From an uncultured Actinomycetes bacterium (GTDB taxonomy: Bacteria; Actinomycetota; UBA4738; HRBIN12): a DNA stretch of 64,000 nt. Each line of letters starts with the position of its first letter. The first letter of the stretch is position 1. The DNA lies in contig CAWGVY010000001.1 in assembly GCA_963826185.1 (NCBI GenBank), positions 261,732-325,731 of the forward strand, given 5' to 3'. Below are positions 21,909-33,822 of the stretch, one piece after another. The translations under genes were made by a program, and so were the position numbers. The notes below the pieces were generated by a model. The model saw only the letters and a list, made by a program, of their open reading frames with translations. It ran no database searches and was not told where the DNA came from.

Positions 21909-24009
21909 ATGAACCCTTCCGCCCTGCAACCGCTGCTCGCTCCGCGCTCGATCGCCGTGGTGGGTGCCTCTGAATCACCCGACAGTTGGGCGCCCGAGAT
22001 CGAACGATCGTTGCGCCATGTGGGGTTCGACGGGGATCTTTATCCGATCAACCCGAAGTACGACGAGGTGTGGGGGCGGCCATGCCTGGGCGGCATCCGC
22101 GAGCTGCCTCGCGGGGTGGATCTGGTCGTCTTCGTCGTGCCGGCTCGTGTGGTCGTGCGCATGATCGACGATTGCGGCGCGGCGGGCGTCCGCGGGATCA
22201 TGGTGGTCTCCTCGGGTTTCGCCGAGGCGGGTGACGAGGGACGGGCGCTTCAGGAGGAGCTCCGTCTGGCCGCGGTCCGTACCGGGATCCCGGTCTTAGG
22301 TCCCAACGTCGAGGGGTTCGTGAACTACGTCGATCGCGTGGCGCCCTACGGCACGGTGCCGCCGCCCAACCCGCTGCCCGGGCCGATCAGCGTGATCAGC
22401 CAGAGCGGCACCGTCGCGTGGGCGATGAACCAGATGGCCTCGGATCGAAGCGTGGGCCTGCGGATCATCCTGGGTGTCGGCAACGAGGCCGTGGTGGGGC
22501 TGGGGGACATGTTCGCCTGGGCGGCGGCCGACGCCAAGACCACCGTGGTCACCAGCTACATCGAGACGATGCGCGACGTGGACGGGATCGGGCGCGGGCT
22601 CGACGCGCTGCGCGACGCTCGCAAGCCGATCCTGATCTGCGCACCAGAGGGGCGGAGCGAGGCAGCCCGCCGGTCCATCGTGGCGCATACGGGCGCCCTG
22701 GCTGGAGACACGGCGATGCGCGATGCCTGGCTGAAGGGCCACGGCGTCGTCCTGGTCGACGATCCCGTCACGATGTTCGAGGCAGCGGTGCTGCTGTGCC
22801 ACGCCAGGAAGGTGAGGACCCCCGGGGTGGCGGCGGCTCTGCAGTCGGGCGGTGCCTGCACCCTGTTCGCCGAGGCTGCGGGAGGGCAGGGCCTCACGAT
22901 GCCGGAATTCTCGACCAAGACGAAGCGACGGCTCAAGCGGACGCTGCCGCACTACGCCTCGCAGAACAACCCGCTCGACGTGACGGGTCAGGCGGCGGTG
23001 GAGACGGGGATGTTCTGCGACGCGCTCGATGCGTTGGCGAACGATCCGGGCGTGGGGGTGGTGGTGTTCGACGCCTTCCCGCCCAGGCTTCCCGGCGAAG
23101 AGCCATGGGCCGGCCCGGTCCTGCGGAAGGTGCAGGAGCTCCGTCGATCCACCGGCGTGGTGTTCGTCAGCGTCGCCATGAGCCCGCTCGCATACGCGGC
23201 GGAGGCTGCGTCGTTCGTGCGTAGGTGGAGGCTCCCCGTTCCTCCAGGGTCACCGGGCGGCGACCGGCGCGATACGCGCGCTGATCGACCTCCAAGGGTT
23301 CCCGGCCCGGCCGGCGACGACGCGTGCGGGGCATCCGAACCGAGCGAAGGCTCTCCGGTCGCTCCGGGGGGCCGCCGGCCCATTGGACGAGGAGAAGGGC
23401 GCGAAGCTCCTCACCTGGTACGGGGTCGCCCGGCCGAAAGAGGCCACGGTTCGAACACCGGCCCAAGCCGCCGAGGCGGCGCGGTCGCTCGGGTTCCCGG
23501 TCGCCGTGAAGGCCCTGGCACCCGAGGTGCCGCACAAGGCCCGGCTGGGCGGCGTCCGGCTGGATCTCACGGATGCCGCCGATGTTGAGATCGCAGCGGC
23601 CGAGGTGCTCGCGGCCGCCGCACGTGCTGGCGCCGTGGCCCCGAAGGTCCTTGTGCAGCGGATGGCGACCGGGCACGAGGTGCTCGTCGGCGCGGTGGTC
23701 GACGAACGGTTCGGCCCGTGCATCACGATCCGACCCGGAGGCGCGCTCGCGGAACTCGGTGAGGCGGTCTTCGCGGCCTGCCCGCTGACCCCGGCGCAGG
23801 CGGAGGCCTACGTGCGTTCGCAGGCCGACCGATGCGGCCTGGATCCGGCTCTGCACGATCTAGCCGCCACGGCCAAAGCTGTGGGCGCGATCGCGAGAGC
23901 CGCGCACGATCTCCGGAACCGCCTCACGTCGCTGGAGGCCAACCCGCTGTTGGTGAGCTCGCGCGGGGCTGTAGCGGTGGACGCGTTGGCCGAAGCGCGC
24001 TCCGGGTGA
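21909..24009 (+). CDS. ADP-forming acyl-CoA synthetase (CoA-binding/ligase domains plus ATP-grasp domain), with one frame break
   Basis: Frame 0: 'MNPSALQPLLAPRSIAVVGASESP...'. Frame 1 from about 23224: 'GGSPFLQGHRAATGAIRALIDLQ...LDEEKGAKLLTWYGV...' (ATP-grasp). Break within 23182-23225. Confidence 0.8.
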
Positions 24010-25269: not shown

Positions 25270-26928
25270 TCAGCTCTCGCGGTGCCGATAGAAGTCGACC
25301 GGCTCCGCCGGCAGCGGTGTGTTGCCCAGGACCAGATCGGCGGCTTTCTCCGCCACCATCATCACCGGCGCGTAGATGTTACCGTTGGTGACGTAGGGCA
25401 TCACCGACGCATCAACGACCCGAAGGCCGTCGAGCCCATGCACCCGCATGCTGGCCGGGTCGGTGACCGAGAGGTCATCGATGCCCATCCTCGCGGTGCA
25501 CGAGGGATGCAGGGCCGTTTCGGCGTCCCTAGCCACCCACTCCAGGATCTGCTCGTCGGTCTCCACGCTGGGACCGGGTGAGAGCTCGCCGTCGTTGAAC
25601 GGGTCGAACGCGGGCTGGTTCAGGATGCTGCGGGCCGCGTGGATCGCCTCGACCCACTCGCGACGGTCCTGCTCGGTCGAAAGGTAGTTGAACGTCATCG
25701 CCGGGTGCTCCCGGGGATCGGCGCTCTTCACCGTGATGGATCCGCGGGCGTCGGAGTACATGGGGCCGATGTGCACCTGGTACCCGTGGTCGGTCGCCGG
25801 CGCGGATCCGTCGTAGCGGATCGCGATGGGCAGGAAGTGGAACATCAGGTTCGGGTAGTCGACGTCTTCGTCCCCCCGGACGAAGCCGCCGGCTTCGAAG
25901 TGGTTGGTGGCTCCCAGTCCGCTCCTGAAGAACAACCACTGGGCTCCGATGAAGGGCCGGCGCCACATCTTCATCCCCGGGGCGATCGAGACCGGTTGCT
26001 TGCACGCGTATTGGATGTACACCTCCAGGTGGTCTTGCAGGTGCTGGCCCACGCCGGGGAGGTCGTGCACGACGTCGATCCCCAGCGGCCGGAGATCCTC
26101 GGCGTTGCCCACCCCCGAAAGTTGGAGCAATTGCGGGGTGTTGATCGCCCCGCCGCACAGAACGACCTCGCCGGCCCGCACGACGATGGCGTCGCTCCGG
26201 CCATGCGTGTATTCCACGCCGACGGCCCGCGTCCCCTCGAACAGGATCTTCGTGACGAACGCCCTCGTCTTCACGTCGAGGTTGGGTCGCGACATCACGG
26301 GGTGGAGGTAGGCGCGCGCCGCCGAGAGCCTCCGACCCCGATGGACGTTGCGGTCGAAGGGCGCGAAGCCCTCCTGGCGGAACCCGTTGACGTCGTCGGT
26401 GAGCGGGTAGCCCGCCTGTTGCACGGCTTCGAAGAAGGCGCCGAACAGCGGGCTGGTGGCGGGGCCACGCTCGAGGACGAGCGGTCCGGCGTGCCCCCGG
26501 AACGCGTCGTCCCGGTCCGCGGCGAGGCACCGCTCCATGCGCTTGAAGTAAGGGAGGCAGTGCGCGTAGTCCCACGTCTGCATCCCAGGATCGGACGCCC
26601 ACCGCTCGTAATCGAGCGGGTTCCCGCGCTGGAAGATCATGCCGTTGATGCTGCTGGAGCCACCCAGCACCTTGCCGCGGGCGTGGTAGATGCGCCGCCC
26701 GTTCATGTGGGGTTCGGGTTCGGATTCGTACTTCCAGTCGTAGAGACGGTTCCCGATGGGGAACGCCAAGGCGGCGGGCATGTGGATGAAGGCGTCCCAG
26801 ATGTAGTCGGATCGGCCCGCCTCCAGGACGAGGACCCGGTTCGACGGATCCGCGCTCAGGCGGTTGCCGAGGGCGCTTCCCGCAGACCCCCCGCCGACGA
26901 CTACGAAGTCGTATCGCCCCCCACCCAT
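25270..26928 (-). CDS. betA: choline dehydrogenase (GMC oxidoreductase)
   Basis: 552 aa. '[20 protein letters not shown]', '[13 protein letters not shown]', C-terminal 'HPSCTARMG' and 'VVDASVMP'. Confidence 0.9.
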
Positions 26929-27038: not shown

Positions 27039-28079
27039 ATGGGGAGGGTGCCCTTGACTGATCCGTCGAACGTCACGGTTTCTTGCCGCAACGTGTGGAA
27101 GGTCTACGGACCGAAGGCTGAACGGATCGTCGGGTCAGAGGACGCCAAACTCCCGCGGGCCGAGCTCCTGGAGAAGACTGGTTGCGTCGCCGCGGTCCGC
27201 GACGTCTCGTTCGATGTCGCTCCCGGCGAGGTCTTCGTGGTCATGGGCCTGTCGGGCAGCGGGAAATCGACGCTGGTCCGCATGTTGAACCGGATCCACG
27301 ACCCCACCGCGGGGGAGATCCTGATCGACGGCGACGATGTGCTCGCCATGAACGACGAGCAGCTCCGCCAACTTCGCCGCCGCAAGATCAGCATGGTGTT
27401 CCAGCACTTCGGACTGCTGCCCCATCGCCGCATCGGCGACAACGTGGCGTTCGGCCTGGAGATCCAAGGAGAGAGCAAGGAAGCCCGTGCCACCAAGTCT
27501 CGGGACGTCCTGGAGACCGTGGGTCTGGGCGGATGGGCGGACCACTTCCCGGACGAACTGTCCGGCGGCATGCAGCAGCGCGTGGGACTAGCTCGCGCGC
27601 TGGCGACCGATCCGGAGATCATGCTGTTCGATGAGCCGTTCAGCGCCCTCGACCCGTTGATCCGTCGTGACATGCAGAACGAGGTGGTGCGCCTCCAGAA
27701 AGAGGTGAAGAAGACGATGATCTTCATCACCCACGATCTCGCAGAAGCGCTGAAGCTCGGCGATCGCATCGCGATCATGAAGGACGGGCATTTCGTGCAG
27801 GTGGGGACGCCGGAGGAGGTCGTGGCACACCCTGCCGACGACTACGTGGCCGACTTCACGAAGGAGGTCCCCGGGCCCACGTCCTCACGGCCCGCGCGAT
27901 CATGCGCCCGCCGAACGGGGGCGACGGACGGTCCTGTCGTCGACGTCGCCACCGTGGTGCAGGACCTCATCCCGATGGTGGCTCACGCCGATCCCACGAT
28001 CCGCGTCACGGAAGGGGACGCCGTGGTGGGCCTCGTCGACCGCGATGCCGTGATGTCCGCGTTGGTGGAGGAACACTAA
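27039..28079 (+). CDS. proV: glycine betaine/proline ABC transporter ATP-binding protein
   Basis: 'GLSGSGKST', 'LSGGMQQRVGLARAL', 'MLFDEPFSALD' and a C-terminal CBS-like tail. Start uncertain. Contains a locally compensated frame excursion (see findings). Confidence 0.88.
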   Translation: MGRVPLTDPSNVTVSCRNVWKVYGPKAERIVGSEDAKLPRAELLEKTGCVAAVRDVSFDVAPGEVFVVMGLSGSGKSTLVRMLNRIHDPTAGEILIDGDDVLAMNDEQLRQLRRRKISMVFQHFGLLPHRRIGDNVAFGLEIQGESKEARATKSRDVLETVGLGGWADHFPDELSGGMQQRVGLARALATDPEIMLFDEPFSALDPLIRRDMQNEVVRLQKEVKKTMIFITHDLAEALKLGDRIAIMKDGHFVQVGTPEEVVAHPADDYVADFTKEVPGPTSSRPARSCARRTGATDGPVVDVATVVQDLIPMVAHADPTIRVTEGDAVVGLVDRDAVMSALVEEH

Positions 28080-28290
28080 GCATGGCCGTCGCGCCACCGC
28101 GATCGCAGACCCCATTCGAACAGGTCGCCGCTCCGCCGTCGATCGCCTCGTCGGGGAGTCCGTGGCCTCGGCGGATCGCTGGAGCGAGAGCGGCGCGAGG
28201 TCGGTGAGGTGGTGGCGGTTGCCGCTGTGGTCGTGATCGTAGTCGTTCATCGGTCTACAGCTCACGCCCGGCTTCCCGGAGAAGTGGATC

Positions 28291-29150
28291 GTGGACGTCA
28301 CCCGTTGGTTCGATGCCTTCCGCGACTGGGCGATCCTGAACCGCACCACCAGCCCTTTGTTCGTCTACTTCCTTACGCCGATCGGGGACTTCGCGACCCA
28401 GGTGGTGACCAACACGATCCTGCTGCTCGAACGCATGACGTGGCTCGGGCTGGTGGTGACCGCCGCCGCGATCTCCGGTCTGGTGGCGGGGTGGAAGATG
28501 GCGGTCCTGGCCGGGGCAGGGGTTCTGAGCTTCGGTCTGCTCGGGGTATGGGACGCCGCCATCGAGACCATGGCGCTGATGCTCGTGGCCGTGGTCCTCG
28601 CCCTCCTGATCGGGATCCCGTTGGGCATCTGGGCCGGTCGTCGTCCTCGGGTGGAGCGCGTGCTGCGCCCGATCCTGGACGCGATGCAGACGATCCCCGC
28701 CTACTCCTACCTCTTGCCGTTCGTCCTTCTGTTCGGGATCGGGGACGCGCCGGCGCTGATGGCCACGCTGGCCTTCGCCCTCCCGCCGGCGATCCGGCTG
28801 ACGGCGCTGGGGATCCGTTCGGTGCCCGGTTCATCACTCGAGGTCGCGGACGCGTTCGGTTCCACCGACCGCCAGAAGTTGCGCCTGGTGCAGGTCCCCC
28901 TCGCCAAGCCGTCGATCATGCTTGGTGTGAACCAGACGATCATGATGGCGCTGGGGATCGTCGTGATCGCCGCGTTCGTTGGCGCTGGCGGTCTGGGCCA
29001 GACGGTGCTGGACGGGCTGCAGCGCCTGAGCGTCGGCTCGGCGCTGAACGGGGGCGTCGCCATCGTCATCATGGCGGTTGTGCTCGACCGGGTCACCACG
29101 GCCTGGAGCCTGCGTGAACGTCGCCGGGTCCGTCCACCACACTCGGAGAA
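28291..29150 (+). CDS. proW: glycine betaine ABC permease, first transmembrane domain (ProW-like); N-terminus and 3' boundary unresolved
   Basis: Intact frame-1 segment: '...LDAMQTIPAYSYLLPFVLLFGIGDAPALMATLAFALPPAIRLTALGIRSVP...QVPLAKPSIMLGVNQTIMMALG'. Likely N-terminal pieces lie upstream in other frames (ATG 28082 in frame 2; GTG 28209 'VVAVAAVVVIVVV' in frame 0). No stop codon before the second domain. Confidence 0.7.
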
Positions 29151-30176
29151 CTACGAGCTGAGCCGTCGGCAGCTGACGATCATCGCCGCCGCCGCCATCG
29201 TTGCCGCGGTTCTGATCGGCCGGCAGGTCCTGCGGCAGCAGGGGTTCCCGGAGGGACTAGTTCTCGCTCGCCGGACCCACGGACACCTTCGTGGATTGGC
29301 TGCAGGCGACGTTCGGGAACTCACGAGCGCGATGAGCGACTTCATCCTTGATATATGCTGGATCCGATCGAGGATCTGTTCACGGGTGTGCCCTGGTGGA
29401 TGATGGCGGCGCCTTTGCGCTGATCGGATACAGGGTGTCCGGGATCCGGCTGGCGATCGGCGAGTTCTGCTGCATCGCTGGGCTGGGCGTGCTGGGCATG
29501 TGGGATCTGTCGATGGGCACGCTCAGTCAGGTGCTCGTGGCGGTCGTCATCACGATCGCGTGCGCGATCCCCTCGGGATCCTGTCGGCCCGTAGCGACCG
29601 CTTCGAACGATGGTCCAAGCCGGTGCTGGACGCGATGCAGACGATGCCGGCGTTCGTGTACTTGGTTCCGGTGTTGTTTCTGGTCGAGCCCGGCCGCGTG
29701 CCTGCGATCATCGCTTCCTTCGTCTACGCTTGCCCCCATGGCGATCAGGCTCACGAACCTGGGGATCCGCCAGGTGCCCAAGGAGATCGTCGAGGCCAGC
29801 GAATCCTTCGGGCCCTACCACGGCCAGACTGCTCCGCAAGGTGCAGGTCCCGCTGGCGAAGCCGTCGATCCTGCTCGGCGTGAACCAGACGATCATGATG
29901 GTCCTCTCGGTCGTGATCATCGCCGGGCTGATCGGGGCAGCGGGCCTCGGGCAGGAGGTAGTGTTCGCGCTCGGGAAGCAGCAGATCGGCCGCGGGGTGG
30001 TCGCAGGGGTCTGCATCATGCTCCTCGCCGTCTCTATTGACCGTATAACTCAAGCGATGGGTTCTGGCTCGGCGAACGAGGGGCCCGGGCGGTATCGGGT
30101 TGCCCGCCCGGACACGGATGCGTGTCGTGCATGTTCATCTCGGCAAGGCCGACCGGAGGGAAAGGGGATCGGATGA
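29151..30176 (+). pseudogene. glycine betaine ABC permease, second transmembrane domain (ProZ-like), broken by about 7 frame changes
   Basis: Conserved pieces alternate between frames: 'FSLAGPTDTFVDWLQATFGNS' (f2), 'AMSDFILD' (f1), 'LDPIEDLFTGVPWWMMAA' (f0), 'AFALIGYRVSGIRLAIGEF...' (f2), 'LGILSARSDRFERWSKPVLDAMQTMPAFVYLVP...' (f1), 'PPMAIRLTNLGIRQVPKEIVEASESFG' (f2), 'RKVQVPLAKPSILLGVNQTIMMVL...' (f0). The frame-0 stop overlaps the proX ATG (ATGA at 30173). Confidence 0.75.
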
Positions 30177-31177
30177 GGAAGCGCGGATGGGTACGGCTCG
30201 CGGCCCTGTCGGCCGTGGCGGTGCTCGCGATGGCGGCGTGCAGCGACGTCCAGGAGAGCGGTGAGCGGAGCGTCGGCGGGTCCACGGCGAACGTCGCTAA
30301 GTGCGGGAGCGATCGATCACGATCGCGGTCAACCCATGGGTGGGCGCGGAGGCGAACGCCACCGTCGCCAAGGTCGTGATGGAAGAGCAGATGGGCTGCA
30401 CGGTGAAGCTGCAGGAGATCAACGAGTCGGGCCAGTTCCCAGCCATGGCCGACGGCAGCGTCGACGCCACCCTGGAAGTCTGGCCGTCCGGTCACCTGAA
30501 GGACCGCAAGGACTACATCGAGAAGGACGCGGGCGTGGTCGACGGTGGCGAGTTGGGGATCATCGGCAATATCGGCTGGTTCGTGCCGTCGTACGTGATC
30601 GATCAGACCCCCCAGTTCGCCACGTGGGAGGGGTTCAAGAACAACGCCGACGAGTTCGCCACGGCAGAAACCGGCGACAAGGGCCGGTTCCTGGGCGCAG
30701 ACACGACCTACTCGATCTTCGACGAGGCCATCATCAAGAGCCTCGGATTGGATCTTCAGGTCGTGTACTCCGGGTCGGAGGCTGCCTCGCTGGCGGCCTT
30801 GGACAAGGCCTACAACAACCAGGACCCCATCCTGATGTACTGGTGGACCCCGCAGTGGGCCAGACGCAAAGTACGACCTGGTCGAGGTGAAGTTGCCCGC
30901 AGGCGACAACTGTGCCTCGATCGCCGCGGCGGACCCGGATGTGGCCGAGGGCTACAACTGCGACTACGCCGAGGATGTCCTGTACAAGGCGTTCAGCTCG
31001 GAGCTCGAGGGCAAGGACGCGGCGGCGTTCGCGTTCCTGTCCAACTTCCAGTGGACCGAGGAGGACCAGAACGGCGTGGCCCTCGCGATCCAGGACGGCA
31101 CGGATCCTGAACAGGCCGCCCAGGACTGGATCGACGCCAACAAGGACACCGTTCAGGGGTGGATACCGACCGCGTAG
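30173..31177 (+). CDS. proX: glycine betaine ABC substrate-binding lipoprotein, with two frame breaks
   Basis: ATG 30173 after GGAGGGAAAGGGG. 'MRKRGWVRLAALSAVAVLAMAACSD' (lipobox). Then 'SITIAVNPWVGAEANATVAK...MYWWTPQWA' (frame 1) and 'KYDLVEVKLPAGDNCASIAAADPD...DWIDANKDTVQGWIPTA' (frame 2). Breaks at about 30302-30318 and 30850-30866. Confidence 0.8.
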
Positions 31178-31356: not shown

Positions 31357-33822
31357 ATGCGCGAGCGTGCACAGACGGTGATCATCGGCGCCGGGATCGT
31401 CGGCGTGAGCGCCGCCTATCACCTGGCCGAGCTCGGCGAGCGCGATGTCCTGGTCCTCGACCAGGGTCCGCTATTCGAGACCGGGGGCTCCACCTCGCAC
31501 GCCCCCGGCCTGGTGTTCCAGACGAACGGCTCGCGCACGATGTGCCGGATCGCGCAGGACACGGTGACGCTGTACGCGGGCCTCGAGCTGGACGGCGAAC
31601 CCGCATGGTTCGGGGTCGGCGGCATCGAGATCGCTACGACGCCCGAGCGCATGCGTGAGCTCCGTCGCAAGATCGGATTCGCCCGTTCGTACGGGATCGA
31701 GGGCGCGGAGCTGATCACCCCCGCCGAAGTGGTCGAGCATGTCCCACTGCTGGATCCCTCCACCGTGCTGGGTGGCTACTTCGTCCCGTCCGACGGGATC
31801 GCGAAGGCCGTGCGGATCGTGACGGCCCTCGCACGTGCGGCCTCGCTGCACAGCGTGGACTTCGAGGGCGGGGTCGCCGTCACGGGGTTCGACATCCGGG
31901 ATGGTCGCGTGCACGGCGTGATCACCGACCGTGGAGCGGTCGAGTGCGATCGGGTGCTGATCTGTGCCGGGATCTGGGGCCCGACGGTGGGGGCGATGGC
32001 CGGCGTGCCCATCCCCTTGATCGCGGTCCAGCACCAGCTGGTCTGGACCGACCCCATCCCGGAGTTGACCGACGAGACGCACGAGGTCGTTCACCCGATC
32101 CTGCGCCACCAGGACATGGCGATGTACTTCCGCCACCGCGAAGATCACTACGGGGTCGGGAGCTACAGGCACGAGCCGATCGCGACGCCGCAAGCCGGGA
32201 TCCGGGCGTCCGGAGGGCCGATGCAGCCCTCGCTGATGCCCTTCACCCCCGCCGACTTCGCCGTGGCCGAGGCGGAGGCCGGACGGATCCTCCCCCCGCT
32301 CAGCGGTCGGATGCGTCCGGCCGACCCCGCGCGATCGCTCAACGGGATGTTCTCGTTCACCCCCGACGCCGGATCGATCGTGGGTGAGAGCGCGTCGGTG
32401 CGCGGCCTGTGGGTGTGTGAGGCGGTCTGGGTCACGCACGGCGGCGGGATGGGCCGGCAGGTGGCCGAGTGGATGGCCACCGGCGAGCCCTCCTACGATC
32501 TGGCAGAGGCGGACGCGAACCGCTTCTATCCCTTCCAGACGACGCCGCCCTACGTCCTGGAGCGTGGCAAGCAGCAGTACCGGGAGGTCTACGACATCCT
32601 CCACCCGCTCCAACGGATGGAGCGCCCGCGCAAGGTGAAGCTCACCCCGTTCTTCGCCCGGCATCAGGAGCTGGGAGCCGAGTTCTTCAGCGGTGCGGGA
32701 TGGGAGCGTCCGCAGTGGTTCGAGGCCAACGCCGGCTCGGTGCCGGCTGACGCGGGATGGGTCGAGCGCGATCGATGGGCGGCCCGGTTCTGGTCGCCTG
32801 CGGTCGGCGTGGAGCATCTCGCCACCCGCGAGCGCGTCGCGCTGTTCGACATCACACCGTTCGCGAAGTTCGACGTCGCGGGCCGGGATGCGCTGAGCTA
32901 CCTCGAGCGCATCTGTGCGAATCGGATCGATCGACCGGCCGGGTCCGTCGTCTACACCGCGATGCTCACGCCCCGCGGTGGGATCCGCTGCGATCTCACG
33001 GTCACCCGCAAAGACGAGGACCTGTTCCGAGTGGTGACCGGAGGCGGCTCCGGTCAACATGATCTGGCGTGGATGCGTTCGCAGATCCTAGGCGGCGAAC
33101 GCGTGACGATCACGGAGCGCACCGGCTCGCTCTTCTGCCTCGGGCTGTGGGGGCCCCGGGCGCGCGACGTGCTGGCCTCGGTCACCGACGCGGACGTCTC
33201 GAACGAGGCCTTCCCGTACCTGACGGCGAAGTACCTGAACATGGGCGAGGTAGGGCCGGTGTGGGCGCAGAGGATCTCCTACGCCGGCGAGCTCGGCTGG
33301 GAGCTGTACGGCCAGTTCGCGATGGGGGATCGGGCCTGGTCGATGCTCTGGGAGGGCGGGCGCGAGCACGGGATCGTGGCCGCCGGCGGGGGCGCCTTCG
33401 ACTCCCTCCGCTTGGAGAAGGGCTACCGGCTGTGGGGCCAGGACATCCATACCGAGCACGATCCGATCGAGGCCGGGCTGGGATTCGCGGTGCGGTGGGA
33501 CAAGGACTTCCAGGGCCGGGAAGCGCTCGAGCGGATACGGGATGGGAGCCTGACCCACAAACTCGCGTGCATGACCCTGGACGACCCGGTCGCCGTGGTG
33601 ATGGGCAAGGAGCCGATCTGGGCGAAGGGCTCCGTCGTGAGTTACGTCACTTCCGCCGCCTACGGCTATTCGGTTGGCCGTGGCATCACCTACGGGTACC
33701 TGCCGGTCGAGATCGCCACCGAAGGCACGCCGGTGGAGATCGAGTATTTCGGCGATCGGGTTGCGGCGACCGTGGCGGCTGACCCCTTGGTCGACCCGAA
33801 GGGCGAACGGATGAAGGTGTGA
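31357..33822 (+). CDS. dimethylglycine oxidase-like flavoprotein (FAD oxidoreductase domain fused to GcvT-type folate-binding domain)
   Basis: 821 aa. 'TVIIGAGIVGVSAAYHLA' and a C-terminal aminomethyltransferase-like region ('ISYAGELGWELY', 'LRLEKGYRLWGQD'). Architecture resembles Arthrobacter DMGO (from memory). Confidence 0.85.
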   Translation: MRERAQTVIIGAGIVGVSAAYHLAELGERDVLVLDQGPLFETGGSTSHAPGLVFQTNGSRTMCRIAQDTVTLYAGLELDGEPAWFGVGGIEIATTPERMRELRRKIGFARSYGIEGAELITPAEVVEHVPLLDPSTVLGGYFVPSDGIAKAVRIVTALARAASLHSVDFEGGVAVTGFDIRDGRVHGVITDRGAVECDRVLICAGIWGPTVGAMAGVPIPLIAVQHQLVWTDPIPELTDETHEVVHPILRHQDMAMYFRHREDHYGVGSYRHEPIATPQAGIRASGGPMQPSLMPFTPADFAVAEAEAGRILPPLSGRMRPADPARSLNGMFSFTPDAGSIVGESASVRGLWVCEAVWVTHGGGMGRQVAEWMATGEPSYDLAEADANRFYPFQTTPPYVLERGKQQYREVYDILHPLQRMERPRKVKLTPFFARHQELGAEFFSGAGWERPQWFEANAGSVPADAGWVERDRWAARFWSPAVGVEHLATRERVALFDITPFAKFDVAGRDALSYLERICANRIDRPAGSVVYTAMLTPRGGIRCDLTVTRKDEDLFRVVTGGGSGQHDLAWMRSQILGGERVTITERTGSLFCLGLWGPRARDVLASVTDADVSNEAFPYLTAKYLNMGEVGPVWAQRISYAGELGWELYGQFAMGDRAWSMLWEGGREHGIVAAGGGAFDSLRLEKGYRLWGQDIHTEHDPIEAGLGFAVRWDKDFQGREALERIRDGSLTHKLACMTLDDPVAVVMGKEPIWAKGSVVSYVTSAAYGYSVGRGITYGYLPVEIATEGTPVEIEYFGDRVAATVAADPLVDPKGERMKV

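Follow-up and report, generated by a model that had tools for sequence, protein, structure and literature searches.

Patchy frame breaks in a betaine/choline-family importer operon of an actinomycete metagenome-assembled genome are very likely consensus errors

Gene Content of the Importer Operon

The genome investigated here (G000) is the metagenome-assembled genome (MAG) of an uncultured Actinomycetes bacterium (GCA_963826185.1), with an assembly of 2.29 Mb in 10 contigs, ~68% G+C, and an estimated completeness of 77%. The window, meaning the whole stretch of 64,000 nucleotides that was analyzed (G000:C1:261732-325731), holds an ATP-binding cassette (ABC) importer operon of three genes at 27039-31177 on the forward strand, to which all genes described below belong unless stated otherwise. 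These genes encode a proV-type ATPase, a permease, and a binding protein of the OpuAC fold. Their reading frames are interrupted by many small frame breaks, and the origin of these breaks is the subject of this report.

The ATP-binding subunit, proV (27039..28079), is an open reading frame (ORF) that remains open over 346 amino acids and contains the Pfam domain ABC_tran. It reached the curated score of NCBIfam TIGR01186 (359.9 bits, cut-off 326.6) and shared 89% amino acid identity with its orthologue in G009. The TIGR01186 match stops at residue 295, shortly past the first frame break of the operon (27868, approximately residue 277).

The permease (28082..30170) is a fused double permease, composed of a ProW-like half and a second ProW/ProZ-like half, and is split into 11 frame segments here. 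In relatives it is a single ORF of ~686-690 amino acids with two BPD_transp_1 stretches. An earlier interpretation of this DNA, made from the letters and translations without database searches (the sequence-only reading), had named a proW gene and a proZ-like domain; the two halves are indeed present, although both belong to one fused permease of ~690 amino acids rather than to separate genes. Pfam BPD_transp_1 was found in several frames of the window's permease, and the read-through across the frames is 85% identical in amino acids to P0001, the intact orthologue of G009. With its two halves summed, P0001 passed the cut-offs of both TIGR03416 and NF008196 (470 against 363, and 463 against 439), while the unbroken half in the window, where only half a protein is scored, reached 236-239 and fell under these cut-offs. 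A search of 5.8 billion proteins gave 5328 homologues of the fused permease, mostly 680-700 amino acids long. This protein is very common in MAGs of the Actinomycetota and is annotated at the source as a glycine betaine/proline transport permease. The two halves share 70% DNA identity over 307 nt in their core. The C-terminal tail is conserved in the family (..MGSxxP.RGPxGxGL..R.R..), and the permease frame stays open until a few bases before the start of proX at 30173.

The lipoprotein substrate-binding subunit, proX (30173..31177), is divided into three frame segments, with Pfam OpuAC on both of the large pieces. Its signal peptide and lipobox (..LAMAAC) sit in a third frame, apart from the body of the protein. 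Over its full length proX is ~74-75% identical in amino acids to the orthologues of G025 and G016, and its 190-residue middle piece is 81-87% identical to the nine closest relatives. The proX orthologue scored under the equivalog cut-offs of both ChoX (58.8, cut-off 379) and ProX (38.3, cut-off 215). Judged by these matches, the binding protein belongs to the OpuAC family, and its substrate could be a quaternary amine (betaine, choline, or a relative of these), a choice that the family scores do not fix. No second copy of the operon was found in G000 by blastn, which gave only the self match and the similarity between the permease halves.

The operon is flanked by two intact genes. A choline-dehydrogenase-like GMC oxidoreductase lies at 25270-26928 on the reverse strand, and a dimethylglycine/sarcosine-oxidase-like protein with DAO, FAO_M, and GCV_T domains lies at 31357-33822. 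These neighbors are consistent with an importer that would feed quaternary-amine catabolism.

Frame Breaks in the Operon

Frame breaks were detected using a purpose-written protein-to-DNA aligner with explicit frameshift states. The operon was aligned to the intact orthologues of seven to eight congeneric relatives, which were retrieved as longer genomic stretches, and each break was signed by whether bases were extra (+) or missing (−) when measured against the orthologue's frame. Zero breaks were placed when the same three operon genes of G021, G008, G004, and G025 were run as controls. In G000, it placed approximately 14 frame breaks of one or two bases across the operon (~4 per kb). The sequence-only reading had proposed at least ten frame changes in the importer; all ten intervals were reproduced, at sites that recurred with every intact orthologue, with four breaks added (a pair in proV, one at ~30069-30075, and a doubtful one at ~28199). 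Its observation that both insertions and deletions occur also held, as operon breaks of both signs were placed.

The breaks are unevenly spread along the permease. One break of +1 was located in the N-terminus at 28242-28248, and the doubtful break at ~28199, in a poorly conserved part of the N-terminus, was seen against G009 only. The core of the first permease half (28258..29258) is a 1 kb stretch without a frameshift relative to any orthologue. It is followed by the densest patch, in which seven breaks fall within 570 bases (29258..29828), consistently across the seven to eight orthologues. These are located at 29258-29260 (−2), 29319-29320 (−1), 29348-29351 (−1), 29407 (−1), 29568-29571 (−1), 29729-29743 (+1), and 29810-29828 (+1). 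A further break at ~30069-30075 lies in the C-terminal tail, where the conserved tail reads on in the next frame. Two breaks were placed in proX, at 30312-30315 (−1) and 30862-30863 (+1).

The pair in proV is compensated, with −1 at 27868 and a net −2 at 27918-27923, and was supported by all six of the orthologues covering the region. It scrambles 17-18 residues while the ORF stays open, and a nucleotide alignment shows the missing bases. Within the scrambled stretch, the shifted frame reads PRAHVLTARAIMRPPNG where the orthologue has PRAHVLTARAIMRPVNG, identical at 16 of 17 positions. Since the ORF is open, this pair is invisible to an ORF finder or annotator. Silent scrambled stretches of this kind may be common in G000.

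Apart from the breaks, the genes show no sign of decay. The read-through of permease, proV, and proX contained no in-frame stop codons and no larger deletions, and of the 223 columns with an invariance of ≥97% in the family (104 homologues), the permease read-through keeps 218, in agreement with the earlier observation that nonsense substitutions are missing and the peptides conserved. With the residues beside breaks excepted, conservation in the heavily broken permease half does not fall below that in the clean one, and the two deviations in the broken half adjoin break sites.

The cluster of breaks is far beyond chance, because even at the genome's own mean rate the probability of at least 13 events in 3 kb is ~5e-10. 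The flanks are nearly clean: the 5 kb upstream hold a single break, and 31.36-39.1 kb is free of them. The upstream break, the only other one detected within 19.7-39.1 kb, is a +1 break at ~23235, seen with five orthologues, in an ADP-forming acyl-CoA synthetase gene (21924-24000) whose orthologue carries CoA_binding, Succ_CoA_lig, and ATP-grasp_5 domains. The error patch starts inside proV and ends inside proX and does not follow gene boundaries.

Frame Breaks across the Genome

The occurrence of frame breaks outside the operon was investigated in a genome-wide sample. A 400 kb portion of G021, a 97%-complete congener, yielded 266 coding-like ORFs, and the 134 of these with a likely orthologue in G000 at ≥60% amino acid identity were aligned to G000, giving 147 kb of orthologous coding sequence in all. 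This sample contained 42 internal breaks (0.28 per kb) affecting 22 of the 134 genes (16%). The sequence-only reading had considered an error localized to this locus, which did not hold: the breaks are genome-wide, although patchy. No break was found in 112 genes, whereas PEPCK had 8, a DUF2252 gene 6, RecG and a class-III aminotransferase 3 each, and a MurC-like Mur ligase and MetH 2 each. Four genes with at least 6 events were observed against 0.02 expected at a uniform rate, a strong over-dispersion. The broken DUF2252 gene sits 0.6-2 kb from a contig end.

The genes for RNA polymerase were also affected. The rpoC gene (TIGR02386), which is one open frame of 1299 amino acids in G003, is in five pieces in different frames in G000, and 14 frame changes are needed to read it at 92% amino acid identity to G003. 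Likewise, rpoB needs 6 frame changes to read at 95% amino acid identity to the single open frame of G003. Each of the two genes was matched at one G000 locus only, on contig C7. As rpoB and rpoC cannot be pseudogenes in a living cell, their breaks must be consensus errors. The break density of the operon (~4 per kb) is similar to that of rpoC (3.6) and PEPCK (5.3), and therefore nothing specific to the operon locus needs explaining. The sequence-only reading had left two explanations standing, consensus error and recent inactivation of the importer; with rpoC (14 breaks), rpoB (6), the MurC-like ligase, MetH, RecG, and PEPCK broken alike, the first is favored and the second is not.

Break rates determined against reference proteins ranged from 0.08 to 4.4 per kb among contigs. 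A Viterbi/hidden Markov model (HMM) scan of the phase of third-position G+C (GC3) was used as a reference-free way of mapping the patches, though it is insensitive to closely spaced breaks. Phase switches occurred at 0.855 per kb in the control genome and at 0.89-2.0 per kb in the G000 contigs, with ~47 dense patches; this is a lower bound, as the scan missed rpoC. On C1, five dense patches were mapped, including that of the operon (C1:290.5-292.75 kb). Phase switches were denser at contig ends (1.6 per kb) than in contig interiors (1.0 per kb), and in C9, 22% of 1.5-kb windows were dense in them. Among the contigs, phase-switch density was 1.42 per kb in C7 and 2.0 in C9, and ~0.9 in C1, C2, and C4. 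The contigs of G000 differ strongly in consensus quality, perhaps through differences in coverage. Break density thus tracks contigs and contig ends, which marks it as a property of the assembly and not of gene function.

Genome-wide, the indels comprised 35 of +1, 7 of +2, 17 of −1, and 3 of −2, a ratio of insertions to deletions of 42:20.

Assemblies of Relatives and Independent Short Reads

Similar breaks were observed in the assemblies of relatives. In G024 (4 contigs, 67% complete), the same operon carries 10 breaks at entirely different residues, and several neighboring genes at this locus (L015, G024:C1:525000-544900) are broken as well. Split ProX matches among congeners occurred only in assemblies of ≤20 contigs (G011, G013, G018, G022) and never in many-contig ones. 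The problem seems to affect the whole class of few-contig assemblies in the genus.

Independent reads were available from eight shallow soil short-read metagenome runs of one study, which hold 6-12% of the sampled words. Near-identical unitigs covered only 28483-28945, 30591-30741, 30760-30900, and 30922-31072. Over the 140 bases of 30760-30900, a unitig from run X5 matched with zero substitutions and a single gap at 30863, which is the break site in proX. This gap indicates that an otherwise identical, frame-intact sequence exists. Over 28483-28945, unitigs from four soil runs aligned without gaps and differed at 0-5 positions. These were 97-100% identical, mostly ≥99%, while the neighboring parts were matched at 85-95% only, a pattern that suggests either that the organism occurs in these samples in very small numbers or that this core is unusually conserved in nucleotides among co-occurring relatives. 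Many fragments of 85-95% similarity over proV and the permease were also present in these runs.

Origin of the Frame Breaks

Taken together, these results make it highly likely that the ~14 breaks in the operon are errors of the deposited consensus and not mutations in the organism. The operon is an ordinary, very probably functional betaine/choline-family ABC importer (proV, fused permease, proX). Under this explanation, the G000 consensus would carry indels of one or two bases in patches, such that most multi-kb stretches are clean and some patches of 0.5-3 kb bear 4-5 indels per kb, with the operon falling in one such patch. The assembly presumably derives from error-prone long reads, and the patches may reflect a locally poor consensus caused by low depth at these places, by stretches that few reads bridge, or by reads of mixed strains. 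They look like consensus of locally near-raw-read quality. Consensus indels in long-read assemblies are known to produce frameshifted gene calls, and MAGs even of the 'high quality' tier of the MIMAG standard can carry many of them (PMC9262707).

Several observations weigh against this conclusion. The comparison with independent reads reached a single break site, at 30863, where the lesion was not reproduced, and past 30900 the X5 unitig diverges, which makes its source a close relative, possibly a sister strain, and not necessarily the same genome. The search of 5.8 billion proteins gave no intact permease of the same species, the best match being 86% identical. No homopolymer enrichment was found genome-wide, where 11% of events fell near a run of at least four bases against a background of 10%. 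A real lesion may also lie hidden among the artefacts.

The homopolymer result bears on the type of error as well. The sequence-only reading had noted that several breaks sit in short homopolymers and had suggested a homopolymer-prone platform. In the operon itself the association survives weakly, as a run of ≥4 bases is found no more than 6 nt away at 4 of the 14 sites, compared to 10% of random coding positions, a number too small to matter; it disappears across the genome. An error type of the classical Nanopore or 454/Ion kind was rejected on the genome-wide figures, and the excess of insertions over deletions does not fit a homopolymer-prone type either.

Among the alternatives, the one that fares best concerns how the consensus errors arose. 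Rather than through low depth, the patches could have formed when reads of congeners cross-mapped during polishing and left a mosaic, indel-laden consensus. Many congeners occur in similar samples, very conserved genes (rpoB, rpoC, PEPCK) are among those hit hard, and the short-read runs hold the many fragments of 85-95% similarity noted above. However, within the permease it is the best-conserved stretch (28258-29258) that is clean. Conserved genes should be hit harder if reads cross-mapped, and across the 134 sampled genes the break rate rose only from 0.24 to 0.28 to 0.36 per kb over bins of increasing identity, a weak trend that was not significant (Spearman p = 0.42). We regard cross-mapping as a possible but tentative account of the patches.

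True and extremely recent pseudogenization, in which the importer was just lost through a burst of small indels before any substitutions arose, is much harder to sustain. It would account for the concentration of breaks in one operon, with one break in the 5 kb upstream and none in the 7.7 kb downstream, and G000 has no second operon copy that could compensate. However, the equal break density in rpoC, rpoB, the Mur ligase, and many other conserved genes makes a process specific to this locus unnecessary, and 14 indels without a nonsense codon and with 218 of 223 invariant columns intact do not resemble a bacterial pseudogene. The patch also runs from inside proV to inside proX regardless of gene boundaries, and the short-read sequence at 30863 lacks the extra base. 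We therefore consider this loss very unlikely. Equally improbable is the variant in which some or all of the clustered indels are real, and a soil actinobacterial population very recently inactivated the importer amid genuine assembly errors elsewhere; if true, it would point to a local indel-generating process.

Reductive evolution across the whole genome, with frameshifted pseudogenes accumulating everywhere as in Mycobacterium leprae, would fit an assembly of 2.29 Mb, small next to the 2.5-3.6 Mb of congeners, and the 16% of sampled genes that are broken. This process would leave the beta and beta' subunits of RNA polymerase non-functional, with 20 breaks between them and one G000 locus for each. 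Identity in the broken genes is still 92-95%, and they contain no stops. The density of breaks differs between contigs (0.08 to 4.4 per kb) and is higher near their ends, so that it tracks the assembly, and the small size is explained by the 77% completeness. Reductive evolution is thus highly improbable. Recoding that restores the frame, by programmed ribosomal frameshifting or otherwise, can be set aside as negligible, since it is favored by the intact amino acid signal only, whereas the ~14 sites include gains and losses of one or two bases, share no slippery motif, are absent from all intact orthologues, and have the same pattern in unrelated genes.

Patchy consensus error, the explanation preferred here, has consequences for the use of this genome. 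Taken at face value, the MAG would seem to have no betaine/choline importer and no intact rpoB, rpoC, PEPCK, or MetH, among other genes, and would appear pseudogene-rich. Metabolic reconstruction, pseudogene counts, and selection analysis based on G000 need frameshift-aware gene calling or re-polishing, as does work on several congeners assembled in few contigs and at low completeness, G024 among them. In annotation, the locus should be entered as an intact importer of proV, fused permease, and proX, with a sequence in need of polishing.

Comparison with Known Systems

The importer resembles the ProVWX, OpuA, and ChoVWX systems. Its ATPase exceeds the TIGR01186 cut-off, ProW and choline permease are the best matches of its permease halves, the OpuAC fold occurs together with a lipoprotein signal in the binding protein, and the operon adjoins choline-dehydrogenase-like (GMC) and dimethylglycine-oxidase-like genes. 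It differs from these systems in that a single fused chain of ~690 amino acids carries both permease domains, in its gene order (V, WW, X), and in a binding protein whose scores fall far short of the equivalog cut-offs for ChoX and ProX.

As in the pseudogenes of reductive genomes (Mycobacterium leprae, Rickettsia), multiple frameshifts occur in genes that remain recognizable. Unlike those pseudogenes, the broken importer genes show no nonsense codons, larger deletions, or loss of invariant residues, and indispensable genes are hit equally.

The breaks can also be compared with the frameshift indels described for long-read assemblies and MAGs, the problem that IDEEL tests, proovframe, and polishing with short reads address (PMC9262707; bioRxiv 10.1101/2021.08.23.457338). 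G000 departs from the classical Nanopore pattern of homopolymer deletions in having no homopolymer enrichment and more insertions than deletions, and from classical long-read errors in that its own are confined to sharp patches between clean multi-kb stretches. In other respects the likeness is close: indels of one or two bases break conserved ORFs while the amino acid signal runs on in a different frame, essential genes are hit, the assembly is contiguous yet low in marker-gene completeness, and the indels are denser at contig ends.

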